Source: Escherichia coli (lineage in GTDB: Bacteria > Pseudomonadota > Gammaproteobacteria > Enterobacterales > Enterobacteriaceae). From it: a DNA stretch of 64,000 nt. Shown piece after piece: positions 9,321-20,495 of the stretch. The position numbers and the translations under genes were made by a program. The DNA lies in the NCBI RefSeq assembly GCF_030384885.1, contig NZ_CP128613.1; one strand, written 5' to 3'. The notes under the pieces are model-generated. The model was not told where the DNA came from, made no database searches, and saw only the letters and a program-made list of their open reading frames with translations. Each line of letters begins with the position of its first letter. Position 1 is the stretch's first letter.

Positions 9321-9620
9321 AAAAATCCCTTAATTATGAGTCAATAAAGCATGATTCCATTCCAGAGAGGCTGGGCAGGACTTGATAAATATTGATAATA
9401 TAAATATATGCAAATAATAAAATTATTTTAGATTAGAGCAAAAAACACATTACATGTCTATACGACATATAATAAAAAGGTTACAACCATCTGAAATTTA
9501 AAGATTTGTTCTTATTCTCAAAAATATAAAATCATAAATTAAAAATATAAATTCACCCCATTAGATTCATTAAATAAATACTTATTATATTTATCTATAT
9601 AACGTCATAGTAATCTATTA
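9321..9620 (-). promoter_or_regulatory. AT-rich upstream/promoter region of the accessory fimbrial operon
   Basis: ~300 bp of very AT-rich, curved-looking DNA (repeated AAAAATATAAA motifs) immediately upstream of the pilin gene; no ORF of 60 aa or more. Confidence 0.5.
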
Positions 9621-9643
9621 CGCTCTCCGCATCAGCGGAGAGC
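9621..9643 (-). terminator. Hairpin downstream of mrcB (putative terminator)
   Basis: Inverted repeat CGCTCTCCGC-ATCA-GCGGAGAGC about 10 bp after the mrcB stop; no strong U-tract, so it may be a factor-dependent or REP-like structure. Confidence 0.5.
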
Positions 9644-9653
9644 TATTACGATA

Positions 9654-12188
9654 TTAATTACTACCAAACATATCCTTGATCCAACCTGCTACGCCGTCAC
9701 TGTCTTTCTGCTCTTGCTGATCAGGTTGCTGTTGCGGCTGTTGCTGCGGCTGAGAAGACTGATCAAACGGATTGCCTGACGGTTGCTGCTGCATCTCACT
9801 CTGCTGGCACAGCGATTGCGGATCGCTGGTCCAGACCGGTAAGACACGCATGCCACCGCTGCAGACAAAGTTGCCGTCGTAGTCCACGCCCATATCAGCA
9901 ATGTCTTCTGGCGGAACAAGATTCAGCGGTGTTGGCGTCTGGTTAGCCAGATAACGCTGATAAATCGACATTGCCCCACTGGCACCATACAGTTTGGTCG
10001 GCTGGTTGTTATCACGGCCTACCCAGGTGATGGTCACCGTGCTGCCGTCAATGCCCGCAAACCAGGTATCCACGTTGTTGTTGGTAGTCCCGGTTTTGCC
10101 CGCCAGATGCAGGTTCGGGTATTTCGCCCCAAGCTGACGACCCGTACCGCGTTGTACCACCTGCTGCATGGTCCATAGTGTCAGATACGCCGCCTGCGCC
10201 GGAACCGCGCGTTCCGCCTGCGGGAAGCTCTGATACAGCACCTTGCCATCTTCCGCAATTACCGAACGCAGCGCAGAAAGTGGTGCACGGTTACCGCCGC
10301 TGGCGATGGTCTGGAAAGCCTGCGCCACTTCGATTGGCGTTAAGTTCAACGCCCCCAGCAGCATTGCCGGAACCGGATGCAGCTGATCTTTCGGTACGCC
10401 CAGTTTAATCCAGGTATCCGTAACCGCAGGCAGCCCCAGCGCCATCCCCAGATTTACCGTCGGCACGTTCATCGAACGAGTCAACGCATCCACCAGCATC
10501 ACTCTGCCACTTTCGCTATAACGACGATCATCGTTCTGCGGTGACCAGACCTGACCGTTCGGCTGACGCAGCGCGATTGGCGCATCGGCAATCCACGTGT
10601 TCAGGCGATAGATTCTCGGCTGGCTTAAGGCCGTCAGATAAGTCGCTGGTTTTGCAAGGGAACCAATCGAACGACGCGCCTGCATCGCACGGTTGTAACC
10701 TGCAAACTGCGGCTCAGAACCACCAACCATCGCGCGAACTTCACCGCTAAAGCGGTCGACAACCACGATTGCCGTTTCCAGATCGCTCAGCTTTCGCTGT
10801 TTCTTCAGCGCCGGAATACCCTCCACGGCGGCTTTTTCTGCCGCGTCCTGGGCCACCGAGTCAAAGGTAGTGAAGATCTTCACGCCGGAGAGATCTTTCA
10901 CTTTATCGCCCAGTTTCGCCTGTAGCTCCTGACGCACCAGTTGCATAAAGGCTGGCTGTGGAGAGATTACCCCACCACGCGGCTGAACCCCCAGCGGACG
11001 CGCGCTGAGCATTTCATACAGTTCGCCGTCGATAATCTGTTGCTGTTGCAGCAGACGCAGTACCAGATTACGTCGCTCCAGCGCCAGTTTCGGGTTACGC
11101 CACGGATTGTAGATGGACGCCCCTTTCACCATACCCACCAACAGCGCCTGCTGGTCGAGGCTCAATTCTTCTACCGGGCGACCAAAGTAATACAAGCTCG
11201 CCAGCGGGAAGCCGCGGATTTCGTTGTCGCCGCTCTGACCGAGATACACCTCGTTCATATACAGCTCAAGAATACGGTCTTTGCTGTAACGCGCGTCCAT
11301 GATCAGCGCCATGTAGGCTTCGTTCGCTTTACGCCAGTAAGAACGCTCGCTGGAGAGGAACAGGTTTTTCACCAGCTGTTGCGTCAGCGTACTCGCCCCC
11401 TGCACCGTGCGTCCGGCGGTCAGGTTTGCCAACACCGCACGTCCGATGGAGTAGAGACTGATCCCATCATGCTCGTAAAAATGACGGTCTTCTGTTGCCA
11501 GCAAAGTATCCACCAGCAGATCCGGGAAACCACTGCGCGGCACAAACAGACGTTGCTCACCGTTTGGCGAAGAGATCATGGTGATCAGACGCGGATCAAG
11601 ACGGAAGAAACCAAACTGACGGTTGTTCTCCATATTGACGATCGTCGCCAGATGATCGCCATCAAAGGTCAGACGCGCACGCACCTGTCCTTCTTTGCTG
11701 TCCGGGAAATCAAACGGACGACGGATCATCTCAATGCTGTTGGCCTGCACGGTAAATTCGCCAGGGCGCGTCATTTTCGACACCTGACGATACTGGGTCG
11801 CCTCCAGCAGCTTCACCATCTCGTTTTTGCTGATGGTCATGTCTGGCTCAAGGTTGACCATTCGGCCATAAACAGCCGCAGGCAATTGCCAAACTTTGCC
11901 ATCAATACGGCTACGAATTTTTTGATCGAGATAAACACCGTAAATGGCGATCAGCACGGCAAAAACGATAGCCAGTTTTAGCAGCAGCCATAGCCAGCCG
12001 CGTTTGCCACGAGGCTTACGCCCTTTGCCTTTGCCCTTACCTTTGCGCGGCATCGGTTCTTCATCCTCATAGTCATCATAATCGTCGTAATCATCGTCAT
12101 CTTCGTAACGACGACGGCTTACCTTTTGTTTGACCGGACGCGTCGGTTTCCCTTTGCGTCCAATTGGCTCGCGGTCATTCCCGGCCAT
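9654..12188 (-). CDS. mrcB: Penicillin-binding protein 1B (bifunctional glycosyltransferase/transpeptidase)
   Basis: 844 aa from [13 protein letters not shown]; acidic [15 protein letters not shown] and KGKGKGKG N-terminal tracts, transpeptidase SxxK (SLAKP) and KTG motifs, Gln-rich C-tail. Confidence 0.95.
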
Positions 12189-12281
12189 GCTTTTTCTCCG
12201 CAATATTCAGGCGCAAAAGCCCGATTTTCTGTTCTTCTGTAACAAGACAGAAGAAGATATCTCTCAAATTTACTTTGGTCT

Positions 12282-14711
12282 TCATGAATACTTTTTCGTC
12301 CGTCGCGTCGGTGCGGTATTTGCCGGATCATCCGGCCAGACGTGTTTGGGATAACGCCCTTTCATCTCTTTTTGCACCTCGCGATACGCTCCTTTCCAGA
12401 AGGCGCTCAAATCTCGTGTGATTTGCAGCGGCCTTTGGGCAGGAGAAAGCAACTCCAGCACCAGCGGCACGCGCCCCTGGGCGATCGTCGGATTGGTGGC
12501 CTCGCCAAACATCTCCTGCATTCTCACCGCCAGCGCGGGCGGGTTATCTTCATGGTAACGAATGGCGATCCGGCTTCCCGTCGGCACAGTGTAATGCGCA
12601 GGCAATTCACTATCCAGACGTTGCTGCATCCCCCAATCAAGTAATCCGCGTAGCGCCTGATAAATATCGAGTGATTTCAGGCCGCGTAGCGAATGTACGC
12701 CTGTCATATGCGGCAGGAGCCACGTTTCCAGCGTCGCCAACAAACTTTCATCATCAACCGCTGGCCAGTCATATTCCGGCAACCACTTTGCGGCGCATAA
12801 CAAACGCAAGCGTAGCTGTTCCGCTTCCGCCGTCCAGTTGAGCACGCTTAAACCTTTATCACGAATGCCGTTAAGCATCGCCTGATGCAACTCGTCTTCC
12901 GAGGGTTTCGCCAGCGGCTGCACTTTCACCGTCAAATGACCGATTTGCAGCCGACGCCACGCTTTCAGCGTACCTTGCGCGTCATCCCACTCCACAGTGT
13001 CAGACTGCTGTACCAACTGCGGACAGCGTTGTACTAATTCATCGATATCGACCGGTAGCGCCAGTAAAATCCGCGCATCCGGCGAGGCGCTGCCCTGCAA
13101 TAATAACGGTGCGATCAACCATTCGTGGCGGCTGAGCGCATCATCGGCATCGAGCATTGCCCCCATGCCGTTTGCCAGTTGATAGCGCCCCTCTTGCCCA
13201 CGGCGGCGAGCGATGCGATCGGCAAACGCTCCGGCAAGTAACGGTGCGATAAGCGAACTGTCTGCCTCACCGCCGCGTACGTTTAAGCGCTTTAACAGTT
13301 GCTGGCTACGTTGCTGCCAGGCAGGTTGATTGCGCGAAAACGCCACGCCCAGATCGATATTGCCCATCCGTGGTGGCTCTTCGAGAATAGCGGCAATTTT
13401 TGCAGCGGTAGCAGCTTCGTCGTCGCTCTTTGCGCTCACCAGCATTGCCGCTAAACGCGGATCGTTACCCAGCGTCGCCATTTTCTGCCCTTTCGTGCTT
13501 AGCCGTTCACCGTCCATCGCCCCCAGCATCCGCAACAGGCGTTTCGCGGCCTGTAAATTCACGGCTGGCGGTTGATCCAGCCAGCTCATCTGCGTCGGAT
13601 CGCTGCATCCCCATTGCAGTAATTCCATCAGCAAACCGGAGAGATCGCTTTGTAATATTTCTGGTTCACTTTGCGCGGAGGCGCGTTCTGCTTGTTCTTT
13701 GGCGATTAAATGTAAACAGATCCCCGGCTCCAGACGTCCGGCACGCCCGGCGCGTTGCGTCATTGATGCCTGGCTAATGCGTTGGGTAATCAGCCGCGTT
13801 AGCCCCGTGCGCGGATCAAAGCGCGCCACACGTTCCTGAGCACAATCCACCACCAGACGAATACCTTCGATGGTTAAACTGGTTTCAGCAATATTGGTTG
13901 CCAGCACCACTTTGCGCATCCCTTCTGGTGCCGGAAGGATCGCTTTTCGCTGATCGTTCAGCGACAACGCGCCATACAGCGGGCAGAGCAACACATCACT
14001 ACCGATGCGCGAAGCCAGTTGTTCCTGAACGCGCTGAATTTCTCCGACACCAGGTAAAAATAACAGTAATGAGCCGCTTTCCTGATGCAGCAATTCGGCG
14101 GTGGCAACCGCCACGGCTTCATCAAAACGCTGATGAGCGAGCAGCGGTAAATATCGGCGTTCAACCGGAAATGAGCGCCCTTCTGAGATGACGACGGGCG
14201 CTTCTGGCAGCATCTGCTGCAAGCGGTCATTGTCCAGCGTAGCCGACATAATCAGTAGTTTAAGGTCATCACGCAGACCTTGTTGCACATCGAGTAACAG
14301 CGCCAACGCCAGATCCGCCTGCAAGCTGCGCTCATGAAACTCATCGAGGATCACCAATCCAACGCCGCTCAGTTCAGGGTCACGCTGGATCATGCGCGTC
14401 AACACGCCTTCGGTAACTACTTCCAGGCGAGTATTTGCCCCGACACAGTTTTGCGCGCGCATCCGGTAGCCTACCGTATCACCTGTTTTTTCGTTAAGCA
14501 GTTCCGCCAGTCGTTGCGCAACGTTACGCGCCGCCAGGCGACGCGGCTCCAGCAGGATAATTTTTCCGTTAATGCCGGGATGCGCCAGCAGTTGCAGCGG
14601 CAGCCAGGTTGATTTCCCGGCCCCGGTCGGCGCACTTAATAACACCTGCGGTGCACCATCGAGGGCAGCAAGTAACTCAGGTAAGACGGCGGCAACGGGC
14701 AACGACGACAC
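12282..14711 (-). CDS. hrpB: ATP-dependent RNA helicase HrpB (DEAH-box)
   Basis: Walker A PTGAGKST, DEFH box; GTG at 14711 with a GGAG 8 nt upstream gives 809 aa; the alternative ATG at 14756 has no Shine-Dalgarno. Confidence 0.9.
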   Translation of the reverse strand: MSSLPVAAVLPELLAALDGAPQVLLSAPTGAGKSTWLPLQLLAHPGINGKIILLEPRRLAARNVAQRLAELLNEKTGDTVGYRMRAQNCVGANTRLEVVTEGVLTRMIQRDPELSGVGLVILDEFHERSLQADLALALLLDVQQGLRDDLKLLIMSATLDNDRLQQMLPEAPVVISEGRSFPVERRYLPLLAHQRFDEAVAVATAELLHQESGSLLLFLPGVGEIQRVQEQLASRIGSDVLLCPLYGALSLNDQRKAILPAPEGMRKVVLATNIAETSLTIEGIRLVVDCAQERVARFDPRTGLTRLITQRISQASMTQRAGRAGRLEPGICLHLIAKEQAERASAQSEPEILQSDLSGLLMELLQWGCSDPTQMSWLDQPPAVNLQAAKRLLRMLGAMDGERLSTKGQKMATLGNDPRLAAMLVSAKSDDEAATAAKIAAILEEPPRMGNIDLGVAFSRNQPAWQQRSQQLLKRLNVRGGEADSSLIAPLLAGAFADRIARRRGQEGRYQLANGMGAMLDADDALSRHEWLIAPLLLQGSASPDARILLALPVDIDELVQRCPQLVQQSDTVEWDDAQGTLKAWRRLQIGHLTVKVQPLAKPSEDELHQAMLNGIRDKGLSVLNWTAEAEQLRLRLLCAAKWLPEYDWPAVDDESLLATLETWLLPHMTGVHSLRGLKSLDIYQALRGLLDWGMQQRLDSELPAHYTVPTGSRIAIRYHEDNPPALAVRMQEMFGEATNPTIAQGRVPLVLELLSPAQRPLQITRDLSAFWKGAYREVQKEMKGRYPKHVWPDDPANTAPTRRTKKYS

Positions 14712-14784
14712 AAAACGCTCCAGAGGGTTAACATTCTTCGCGCCACATTGTAGCATCGCGGTAATGCATAACCGAGTACCTCAC

Positions 14785-16034
<1,250 letters not shown>

Positions 16035-16211
16035 TAGAGTAAGTAACTGGTTAATTTACATTCTGGTCGCGTGCGCAAATACGCTTTTCCTCACACAGTT
16101 GTCAAGTGTTACGTTTAGATAATTGCTATCCGGAAAAGCTTCTGCTATTTATAGCGGCCTCATTTTTCCCCCGAACATGGGGATCGATAGTGCGTGTTAA
16201 GGAGAAGCAAC

Positions 16212-16667
16212 ATGCAAGAAGGGCAAAACCGTAAAACATCGTCCCTGAGTATTCTCGCCATCGCTGGGGTGGAGCCATATCAGGAGAAGCCGGGCGAAGA
16301 GTATATGAACGAAGCCCAGCTGGCGCACTTCCGTCGTATTCTGGAAGCATGGCGTAATCAACTCAGGGATGAAGTCGATCGCACCGTTACACATATGCAG
16401 GATGAAGCAGCCAACTTCCCGGATCCGGTAGACCGTGCAGCCCAGGAAGAAGAGTTCAGCCTCGAACTGCGTAACCGCGATCGCGAGCGTAAGCTGATCA
16501 AAAAGATCGAGAAAACGCTGAAAAAAGTGGAAGACGAAGATTTCGGCTACTGCGAATCTTGCGGCGTTGAAATTGGTATTCGTCGTCTGGAAGCGCGCCC
16601 GACAGCCGATCTGTGCATCGACTGCAAAACGCTGGCTGAAATTCGCGAAAAACAGATGGCTGGCTAA
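16212..16667 (+). CDS. dksA: RNA polymerase-binding transcription factor DksA
   Basis: 151 aa from [12 protein letters not shown]4 zinc finger [25 protein letters not shown]. Confidence 0.95.
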
Positions 16668-16695
16668 TTACAGCCGTTCCATCACGTTTACCACA

Positions 16696-16724
16696 GGCGG
16701 GAAATGCTCCCGCCTTATTTTTTG
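16696..16724 (+). terminator. Intrinsic terminator of dksA immediately upstream of gluQ
   Basis: GGCGGG-AAATGCT-CCCGCC hairpin followed by TTATTTTTT, ending 9 bp before the gluQ ATG. Confidence 0.8.
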
Positions 16725-16733
16725 TTCAACGAG

Positions 16734-17630
16734 ATGACAGACACACACTATATTGGTCGCTTCGCCCCCTCTCCTTCTGGCGAGCTTCATTTTGGCTCTC
16801 TGATTGCCGCGCTTGGAAGCTTTCTACAGGCTCGCGCCCGGCAAGGTCGCTGGCTTGTTCGCATTGAAGATATCGATCCGCCTCGTGAAGTTCCCGGTGC
16901 CGCAGAGACCATCCTGCGCCAGCTGGAACATTACGGTCTACACTGGGACGGCGATGTTCTCTGGCAATCGCAACGTCACGACGCCTATCGCGAAGCACTC
17001 GCATGGTTACATGAGCAAGGGTTAAGTTATTACTGCACCTGCACGCGCGCACGTATTCAAAGCATTGGCGGTATTTACGACGGTCATTGCCGGGAGTTGC
17101 ATCATGGGCCAGAAAACGCTGCTGTACGTATTCGCCAGCAGCATCCGGTCACCCAGTTTACTGACCAGCTGCGCGGCATTATTCATGCCGACCAAAAACT
17201 GGCGCGGGAAGATTTTATTATTCATCGCCGTGATGGTTTGTTTGCCTATAACCTGGCGGTGGTGGTGGATGATCACTTCCAGGGCGTGAGCGAAATTGTC
17301 CGCGGGGCAGATTTGATCGAACCCACGGTGCGCCAAATCTCGCTGTACCAGCTTTTTGGCTGGCAGGTGCCAGATTACATTCATTTGCCACTGGCACTTA
17401 ATCCACAAGGCGCTAAACTTTCCAAGCAGAATCATGCGCCTGCGTTGCCGAAAGGCGATCCACGCCCGGTACTAATCGCGGCACTTCAATTTCTGGGTCA
17501 ACAGGCAGAAGCACACTGGCAGGATTTCAGCGTCGAGCAAATTCTCCAGTCAGCCGTCACAAACTGGACGCTGACTACCATTCCTGAGTCGGCAATTGTA
17601 AATTCAACATTCTCAAATGCCTCATGCTGA
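16734..17630 (+). CDS. gluQ: Glutamyl-Q tRNA(Asp) synthetase
   Basis: Truncated GluRS-like catalytic domain with class I HIGH-type motif ([14 protein letters not shown]); start placed at MTDTHYIG because the track ATG at 16704 lies inside the terminator hairpin. Confidence 0.88.
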
Positions 17631-17689
17631 GCTATGATTAGCCGCTATTTTTTTGTCCTGAATGATGTTTGACACTACCGAGGTGTATT

Positions 17690-19087
17690 ATTTTTACCCG
17701 AGTCGCTAATTTTTGCCGCAAGGTGCTAAGCCGCGAGGAGAGCGAAGCTGAACAGGCAGTCGCCCGTCCACAGGTGACGGTGATCCCGCGTGAGCAACAT
17801 GCTATCTCTCGCAAAGATATCAGTGAAAATGCCCTGAAGGTAATGTACAGGCTCAATAAAGCGGGATACGAAGCCTGGCTGGTTGGCGGCGGCGTGCGCG
17901 ACCTGTTACTTGGCAAAAAGCCGAAAGATTTTGACGTGACCACTAACGCCACGCCAGAGCAAGTGCGCAAACTGTTCCGTAACTGCCGCCTGGTAGGTCG
18001 CCGTTTCCGTCTTGCTCATGTCATGTTTGGCCCAGAGATTATCGAAGTCGCAACCTTCCGTGGACACCACGAAGGTAACGTCAGCGACCGTACGACCTCC
18101 CAACGCGGGCAAAACGGCATGTTGCTGCGCGACAACATTTTCGGTTCCATCGAAGAAGACGCCCAGCGCCGCGATTTCACCATCAATAGCCTGTATTACA
18201 GCGTGGCGGATTTTACGGTCCGCGATTACGTTGGTGGCATGAAGGATCTGAAAGACGGCGTTATCCGTCTGATTGGTAACCCGGAAACGCGCTACCGTGA
18301 AGATCCGGTACGTATGCTGCGCGCGGTTCGTTTTGCCGCCAAATTGGACATGCGCATCAGCCCGGAAACCGCAGAACCGATCCCACGCCTGGCAACCTTG
18401 CTAAACGATATTCCTCCGGCGCGTTTGTTTGAAGAATCTCTGAAACTGTTGCAAGCGGGCTACGGTTACGAAACTTATAAACTGCTGTGTGAATACCATC
18501 TGTTCCAGCCGCTGTTCCCGACCATTACCCGCTACTTTACGGAAAATGGTGACAGTCCAATGGAGCGGATCATTGAGCAGGTGCTGAAGAATACCGATAC
18601 GCGTATCCATAACGATATGCGCGTGAACCCGGCGTTCCTGTTTGCCGCCATGTTCTGGTACCCACTGCTGGAGACAGCACAGAAGATCGCCCAGGAAAGT
18701 GGCCTGACCTATCACGACGCTTTCGCGCTGGCAATGAACGATGTGTTAGACGAAGCCTGCCGTTCACTGGCGATCCCGAAACGTCTGACGACGTTAACCC
18801 GCGATATCTGGCAGTTGCAGTTGCGCATGTCCCGCCGTCAGGGTAAACGCGCATGGAAATTACTCGAACATCCGAAGTTCCGCGCCGCTTATGACCTGCT
18901 GGCACTGCGTGCTGAAGTAGAACGCAACGCCGAGCTACAACGTCTGGCGAAATGGTGGGGTGAGTTCCAGGTTTCTGCGCCGCCAGACCAAAAAGGGATG
19001 CTTAACGAACTGGATGAAGAACCGTCACCGCGTCGTCGTACTCGTCGCCCGCGCAGACGTGCGCCGCGCCGTGAGGGCACCGCATGA
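17690..19087 (+). CDS. pcnB: Poly(A) polymerase I
   Basis: Nucleotidyltransferase motif [17 protein letters not shown]; basic C-tail; start placed at the ATT codon (IFTRVANF) per the known AUU initiation of pcnB; the track ORF starts at an upstream TTG. Confidence 0.9.
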
Positions 19088-19563
19088 CAGTGGCGTATAT
19101 TGCCATCGGCAGCAATCTGGCCTCTCCGCTGGAGCAGGTCAATGCTGCCCTGAAGGCAATAGATGACATTCCTGAAAGCCGCATTCTTGCCGTTTCTTCG
19201 TTTTACCGCACCCCACCGCTGGGGCCGCAAGATCAACCCGATTACTTAAACGCAGCCGTGGCGCTGGAAACCTCTCTTACAGCAGAAGAGCTCCTCAACC
19301 ACACACAGCGTATTGAGCTGCAGCAAGGTCGCGTCCGCAAAGCTGAACGCTGGGGACCGCGCACGCTCGATCTTGATATCATGTTGTTTGGTAATGAAAC
19401 CATTAATACCGAACGACTCACCGTCCCGCATTACGATATGAAGAATCGCGGCTTTATGCTGTGGCCGCTGTTTGAAATCGCGCCGAAGCTGGTCTTTCCT
19501 GATGGGACAGGATTAGACAACTTATTACGAATAAATAAGTTCGCTGAATTAAATAAATGGTAA
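19084..19563 (+). CDS. folK: 2-amino-4-hydroxy-6-hydroxymethyldihydropteridine pyrophosphokinase
   Basis: 159 aa from [12 protein letters not shown]; overlaps the pcnB stop (ATGA). Confidence 0.93.
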
Positions 19564-19910
19564 GGCAATAGTTTTGCAAATATAAATAAATTCCGAAAAT
19601 AGCTTTCACGCAATTACAATAATCCCTCCTCTAAGTTATAACCGTAATAATATAATATTCACCCCACTCAACAGCCCCACCCATATACACCATTATCATC
19701 ACATTAGATATTTAGTTTTACTTAAAAATGAATTAAGTGGATATTTAATTTTAAATATGCACAATATCCCCCCTAATGATGAACAGATGTTACATTCGGT
19801 AAATCCAAGCATCCATCATTAACAAACCATTCACCTTTTCTTTATCGAGACTTCCTGCTTGAGGAGGTCTGATTAAAGTTAAACTCATGGAATATGATTC
19901 AAGGATTTTT
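19564..19910 (+). promoter_or_regulatory. AT-rich promoter/regulatory region of the yad fimbrial operon
   Basis: ~350 bp AT-rich non-coding region upstream of yadN; no GATC pairs seen. Confidence 0.5.
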
Positions 19911-20495
19911 ATGTCTAAAAAATTAGGTTTTGCGCTCTCTGGTCTTATGCTGGCAATGGTTGCAGGTTCCGCTTCTGCTGATATGGACGGTGGTCAGTTA
20001 AATATCAGTGGTCTGGTTGTTGATAATACCTGTGAAACCCGCGTAGACGGCGGTAACAAAGATGGCCTGATCCTGCTGCAAACTGCAACCGTTGGAGAAA
20101 TCTCTGAGGGTGTGCTGGACACTACCGTTGGTGCTAAAGCTAAACCATTCAGCATTACTGTTGACTGTAGTAAAGCTAATCCGGCACCAGGCAGCACAGC
20201 AAAAATGACTTTCGGTTCAGTCTTCTTTGGTAACAGTAAAGGAACGCTGAATAATGATATGTCAATTAATACGCCATCGGACGGTGTTAATATTGCTCTG
20301 CACAATATCGAAGGTTCTGCTATCAAACAGGTTAAAATCAACAACCCTGGCGATATCTATTCCAAAGCACTGGATGCAACTTCTAAATCCGCAACTTATG
20401 ACTTTAAAGCATCTTATGTTCGTGCAGATGCGAGCCAACCAGGCACTGCTGGTTATGTGAAAACTAACACTGCATATACCGTTACTTATCAGTAA
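19911..20495 (+). CDS. yadN: Yad fimbriae major subunit
   Basis: 194 aa from [23 protein letters not shown]; fimbrial pilin C-terminus YTVTYQ. Confidence 0.9.

Follow-up and report, generated by a model that had tools for sequence, protein, structure and literature searches.

The closest described system is the dksA/gluQ-rs junction of Shigella flexneri 2457T (Caballero et al. 2012, BMC Microbiol 12:226; PMC3542578). There, a dksA-gluQ-rs co-transcript was detected by RT-PCR, and a lacZ fusion running from dksA position +58 to the gluQ-rs start, which leaves out the dksA promoters, gave baseline activity, indicating that gluQ-rs has no independent promoter (PMC3542578). A fusion that stops where dksA ends produced 10-fold higher reporter activity than a fusion that included the intergenic region, and mutations disrupting the stem of the intergenic hairpin increased reporter activity more than 2-fold (PMC3542578). 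In stationary phase the intergenic amplicon rose 20-fold, compared with a 1.3-fold change for the dksA and gluQ-rs amplicons (PMC3542578).

For E. coli K-12, an RNA-seq study used the ligT-sfsA-dksA-yadB-pcnB-folK operon as a worked example (Conway et al. 2014; PMC4161252). A dksA-specific unit is made by an internal promoter together with an internal terminator, pcnB-folK form a separate unit, and a yadB-specific unit is not mentioned in the description of this operon (PMC4161252). A paper on the pcnB promoter (PMC2939334) mentions neither gluQ nor yadB, and a search of the gluQ-rs literature after 2012 returned no further work on the dksA-gluQ junction.

Here we analysed the same locus and the same element in a 64,000-nt stretch of Escherichia coli DNA (the window). 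As at the published junction, a second AUG follows 27 nt after an AUG in the hairpin loop, and the hairpin stability computed for the window (-14.5 to -15.1 kcal/mol) is close to the published value (-14.7 kcal/mol). The junction, which is that of strain E. coli 2013C-4282, differs from the K-12 sequence by one substitution ahead of the start codon (AAC for AAA, 16729-16731). The dksA-gluQRS terminator and the read-through across it are already known, having been published for this locus in 2012; the confirmation across species and the correction of the K-12 gluQ start presented below are useful by-products.

The locus and its hairpin

All genes of the locus lie on the plus strand. RefSeq places sfsA at 15330-16034 and pcnB at 17690-19087, and the annotation of the identical genome NZ_CP027579.1 places dksA (151 aa) at 16212-16667 and, by RefSeq/PGAP, gluQRS (yadB; 298 aa) at 16734-17630. 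The TAA stop codon of dksA occupies 16665-16667. The region 16000-17700 shares 100% identity with E. coli 2013C-4282 (NZ_CP027579.1); of 5426 complete E. coli genomes, 5424 contain it. From the C-terminus of dksA through the U-tract K-12 matches the window, with a single substitution at 16731, just before the ATG, with Asn for Lys in the unused gluQ extension.

Identity over 16000-17700 reaches at least 99% in one of the 5424 E. coli genomes, lies between 95 and 99% in 2816 and between 90 and 95% in 2607. Since the dksA-gluQ junction barely differs from that of K-12, sfsA and/or gluQRS must carry the divergence, pointing to a recombined segment or to a divergent lineage. At the other end of the locus, RefSeq starts pcnB at an ATT codon (17690-17692), and a mechanical list of open reading frames starts it at a TTG (17669). 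The ATT is preceded by the Shine-Dalgarno-like sequence ACCGAGGUG, with an anti-Shine-Dalgarno pairing of -7.2 kcal/mol; an AUU start is a known rarity of E. coli pcnB.

A spacer of 27 nt (16668-16694, plus strand) separates the dksA stop codon from the hairpin and should leave enough room for the stem to form while a ribosome sits at the stop codon. The stem-loop itself (16695-16715, plus strand), identified by terminator scan, folding, conservation and published stem mutagenesis (PMC3542578), is built from the arms AGGCGGGA (16695-16702) and TCCCGCCT (16708-16715) around the loop AATGC (16703-16707). It is followed by the U-tract TATTTTTTGTT (16716-16726, plus strand), recognised from the sequence and by the terminator scan, which doubles as an A/U-rich leader 5′ of the gluQRS start. 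The scan reported eight pairs, six of them G-C, and a tail with seven T; seven of the eight nucleotides after CCCGCC are U. The gluQRS ATG (16734) lies 18 nt past the 3′ end of the stem.

This hairpin was the top-ranked terminator-like site of the scan over positions 1-20000 of the window. The total number of terminator-like sites in that scan did not exceed that in shuffled sequence, so ranking and energetics carry the case, not the count. At -15.1 kcal/mol, the 37-nt hairpin element is more stable than every one of 200 dinucleotide shuffles (-6.6 ± 2.3 kcal/mol; z = -3.76), and the GGCGGG..CCCGCC motif occurs once in the whole 64 kb, where 0.02 occurrences are expected. The junction therefore combines the properties of an intrinsic terminator: a stable GC-rich stem-loop with a U-rich tract on its 3′ side, located 3′ of a stop codon and oriented like the gene it follows, with pairing that has been kept in evolution. 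The first-pass annotation, made from the sequence alone, had proposed such a terminator at 16696-16724, a span within one base of the tool-defined limits, and the shuffling statistics bear it out. Its spacing of 9 bp between the terminator and the gluQ ATG is correct when the U-tract is taken to end at 16724.

A smaller hairpin (16658-16675; stem GGCTG/CAGCC) carries the dksA stop codon in its 8-nt loop. On the minus strand the scan scored it as a weak terminator-like site, and among the compared sequences it is present only in Escherichia; it is probably a chance feature.

To place the junction in an evolutionary context, the 298-aa protein was used as a tblastn query against one genome per species, yielding 80 Enterobacteriaceae loci from genera that include Escherichia, Citrobacter, Salmonella, Kluyvera, Enterobacter, Lelliottia, Leclercia, Kosakonia, Cedecea and Buttiauxella. 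Among the 80 sequences used for counting the hairpin core (the window and 79 loci), the exact GGCGGG...CCCGCC core was found 12-26 nt 5′ of the gluQRS ATG in 74, and a variant hairpin occupies this position in the remaining six. The median distance from the dksA stop codon to the core is 27 nt across species. Sequences of the spacer and flanks cannot be aligned between genera; the stem can.

Within the stem alignment 85.9% of cells are paired, versus 48-59% when the partner strand is slid by one to three columns. Next to no variation occurs in the six core pairs, which are hence uninformative on covariation. Above and below the core, two-sided changes were observed at five pairs, with A-U replaced by G-C five times, G-C by A-U six times and A-U by C-G five times. 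Together with pairing above that of the slid controls, these compensatory changes at the stem ends indicate that the hairpin structure is under selection, and the alignment argues that the core is conserved in sequence as well.

The U-tract is more variable, with three to seven U in the eight nucleotides after the core in other species. In 18 species, mostly Enterobacter and Lelliottia but also Yokenella, the hairpin lies 12-14 nt from the ATG with its stem intact (loci L030, L036, L040, L043, L045, L050, L054, L055, L058, L062-L064, L070, L072, L074, L075, L078 and L081). The tail in this Enterobacter/Lelliottia/Yokenella group reads TTGTTACYGT, with three to five U in eight; the Enterobacter-type variant is TTGTTACCGT. 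That the hairpin has been kept despite a poor U-tract in Enterobacter and Lelliottia suggests that termination may not be its sole selected role.

Read-through expression of gluQRS

Taken together with the published experiments, these results support a model in which the hairpin is a leaky Rho-independent terminator within the dksA-gluQRS operon, and gluQRS is, very probably, expressed solely by read-through from the dksA promoters with translation starting at 16734. RNA polymerase departing from those promoters would transcribe dksA, and the GC-rich hairpin followed by the U-tract would form about 27 nt past the stop codon. Most transcripts would end at the U-tract, giving an abundant dksA-only mRNA, while a minority would continue and supply all gluQRS mRNA. 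The published reporter difference of 10-fold leads us to infer that on the chromosome this minority amounts to about one transcript in ten. The read-through mRNA would be translated from the AUG at 16734, 18 nt past the stem, and not from the AUG in the loop. Sequence and published experiments together show the structure, the co-transcription, the lack of a separate promoter, the gain upon removal or mutation of the hairpin and the use of the second AUG. GluQ-RS would be held far below DksA at the levels of both transcription and translation, yet remain tied to the same promoters. Such an arrangement, all elements of which are in the literature, explains how much DksA and very little GluQ-RS can be made from shared promoters, and ties a tRNA-modification enzyme to a regulator of the stringent response.

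The dependence of gluQ on terminator read-through had been proposed from the sequence alone, and it agrees with the co-transcription and with the 10-fold and more than 2-fold reporter gains observed upon removal of the intergenic region and mutation of the stem (PMC3542578). With the paper's numbering converted by setting the dksA stop codon to +509, the published fusions would end at approximately 16683, without the hairpin, and 16746, with it. The same annotation had argued that the spacing leaves no room for an independent gluQ promoter. Such a promoter is excluded by experiment, through the baseline activity of the promoterless fusion and the K-12 RNA-seq, whereas the spacing argument is not valid alone, because a promoter could sit inside dksA. 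A consensus scan returned no promoter-like site on the plus strand between 15500 and 17600, a result that is weak by itself as the scan also misses the known dksA promoter.

The sole consensus promoter-like site on the plus strand between 15500 and 18500 is TTCTCA-17-TATGAT (17610-17638), which overlaps the last codons and the stop codon of gluQRS. By coordinate conversion, the pcnB-folK promoter S-159171 (PMC4161252) maps to approximately 17645, the start expected from the -10 element of this site.

Two observations qualify the quantitative side of the model. Mutation of the stem had an effect of little more than 2-fold, against 10-fold for removal of the whole intergenic region, so the hairpin may not account for all of the 10-fold difference, and mRNA stability or the change of fusion junction could contribute. 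Moreover, a purely constitutive terminator does not explain why the intergenic amplicon increases 20-fold in stationary phase.

This rise, set against the 1.3-fold change of the flanking amplicons, is the main reason to consider that the hairpin might be the expression platform of a regulated attenuator, in which a ligand, a protein or a growth-phase signal modulates read-through and GluQ-RS can be induced, in stationary phase for instance, independently of DksA. Regulated read-through was raised by Caballero et al. themselves (PMC3542578), and the stem core keeps one sequence from genus to genus, even next to a weak U-tract. A GC core without variation, however, is what any stem under purifying selection would show. 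The 5′ flank differs between genera and so holds no conserved aptamer or antiterminator; across the 80 junctions no conserved antiterminator pairing that competes with the terminator was found. No sensor of the kind an attenuator needs was recognised: Rfam (E ≤ 1, 15800-18000) returned no family match except a chance sub-threshold snoRNA hit inside dksA, and the riboswitch search of the earlier study was likewise negative (PMC3542578). The only alternative helix, described below, is not conserved. We therefore regard regulated attenuation as unlikely and retain leaky termination as the preferred reading.

In the minimum-free-energy fold of 16665-16760, an outer helix (16680-16688 with 16728-16736) sequesters the gluQRS start codon. 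By partition-function folding of the 80 orthologous junctions, its pairing probability has a median of 0.04 and exceeds 0.5 in eight. It encloses the terminator hairpin and does not compete with it, and one of its halves is broken by the AAC/AAA difference in K-12. The helix was rejected as a chance feature of the strain.

A second role for the hairpin, as an element of translation initiation or factor binding (a ribosome standby platform or a protein-binding site) that sets or regulates the synthesis of GluQ-RS, is about as improbable as regulated attenuation. What points to it is the invariant core (GGCGGGAG...CUCCCGCC), found 12-26 nt 5′ of an AUG that lacks a Shine-Dalgarno sequence in 74 of 80 species, including lineages in which the U-tract has decayed. 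If true, it would explain the 20-fold growth-phase change in intergenic RNA.

Translation start of gluQRS

The gluQRS AUG has no Shine-Dalgarno sequence. Its best anti-Shine-Dalgarno pairing is -1.8 kcal/mol, with zero spacing to the ATG, compared with -9.2 kcal/mol for dksA (UUAAGGAGA), -5.2 for sfsA and -6.2 for folK on the same metric. The AUG used for GluQ-RS was likewise described as having no obvious Shine-Dalgarno sequence by Caballero et al. (PMC3542578). Over the 80 species the score at the gluQRS start has a median of 0.0; one species reaches -4, and the other 79 have no Shine-Dalgarno sequence. Judged by this comparison, the missing Shine-Dalgarno is a conserved property of gluQRS and not a quirk of one strain.

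Initiation at such a start is probably inefficient and may depend on the leader, which is U-rich and unstructured; binding of ribosomal protein S1 to a leader of this kind is an obvious candidate for recruiting ribosomes to an AUG that lacks a Shine-Dalgarno sequence. Alternatively, the start might be served mainly by ribosomes leaving dksA that initiate again 66 nt further on, through termination-reinitiation or 70S scanning, which would couple gluQRS to dksA in translation as well as in transcription. The conserved lack of a Shine-Dalgarno sequence would fit such coupling, as would the short and constrained distance between the two genes (median 68 nt), and in the construct that yielded the 298-aa protein, pelB stood in for dksA as a translated ORF ahead of the start (PMC3542578). 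Yet 66 nt is long for re-initiation, and a stable hairpin between the dksA stop codon and the gluQRS start would hinder scanning. The S1-bound leader, moreover, explains a start without a Shine-Dalgarno equally well on general grounds, and we give re-initiation only a small chance.

Two in-frame ATG codons are available to gluQRS. The upstream one (16704-16706, plus strand) lies in the loop of the hairpin within which the first-pass annotation had placed it; it is the start in the list of open reading frames and the annotated start in K-12, where gluQ comprises 927 nt and 308 aa (NC_000913.3; start at 160112, versus 160082 for the second ATG). Edman sequencing, however, returned TDTQYIGRFAP, the residues that follow the second Met, so the second AUG is used and the protein has 298 aa (PMC3542578). 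That N-terminus was obtained from protein over-expressed under a T7 promoter, and a minor 308-aa species might occur in vivo. The solved structures 1NZJ and 4A91 represent the 298-aa form, their residues 1-298 aligning to residues 11-308 of the long ORF; it is in this form that the enzyme was crystallised and is active. The alignment with GluRS homologues begins only at residue 17 of the long form.

Conservation separates the two codons in the same way. The downstream ATG (16734) is universal: the tblastn match begins at the equivalent Met in 73 of 80 loci, and the other seven have an in-frame ATG within two codons of that Met or a different offset in the match table. Among the 80 sequences the loop ATG is confined to the window, three other Escherichia species and one chance case in Kosakonia, and is missing in nearly all other genera. 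Its position is occupied by ATA in E. whittamii, and in Escherichia sp. MOD1-EC7003 a T-tract shorter by one base puts the codon out of frame.

Apart from the K-12 annotation, the loop ATG has in its favour the Shine-Dalgarno-like sequence ACAGGCGGG ahead of it (-6.3 kcal/mol), but that sequence forms the left arm of the -15 kcal/mol stem, with just 2 nt between it and the codon. Translation from 16704 to give the 308-aa protein of the K-12 record is thus highly improbable and already largely refuted, as the first-pass annotation had anticipated in calling this start unlikely. The Edman N-terminus, the crystal structures, the PGAP annotation and cross-species conservation all favour the 298-aa form, and the reference gluQ start in K-12 is probably ten codons too long. 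The K-12 record, and hence many resources derived from it, still begin gluQ at the loop ATG.

Comparison with other terminator-preceded genes

preQ1 riboswitches and the attenuators of queuosine genes likewise place a terminator hairpin directly 5′ of a queuosine-linked gene. Unlike the preQ1 riboswitches, the dksA-gluQRS hairpin comes without an aptamer, an Rfam match or a conserved alternative structure, and it resembles the expression-platform half only. Closer parallels are provided by rpsU-dnaG-rpoD, with a terminator 5′ of dnaG and an unusual Shine-Dalgarno sequence, and by recA-recX, with approximately 10% read-through. In both, internal leaky terminators set gene ratios, and the analogy was also drawn by Caballero et al. 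(PMC3542578). The dksA-gluQRS operon differs from them in its genes, in a terminator stem that is unusually near the start codon (18 nt) and in a start that lacks a Shine-Dalgarno sequence entirely. What the three operons have in common is that the downstream gene is expressed through read-through only, and at a much lower level.
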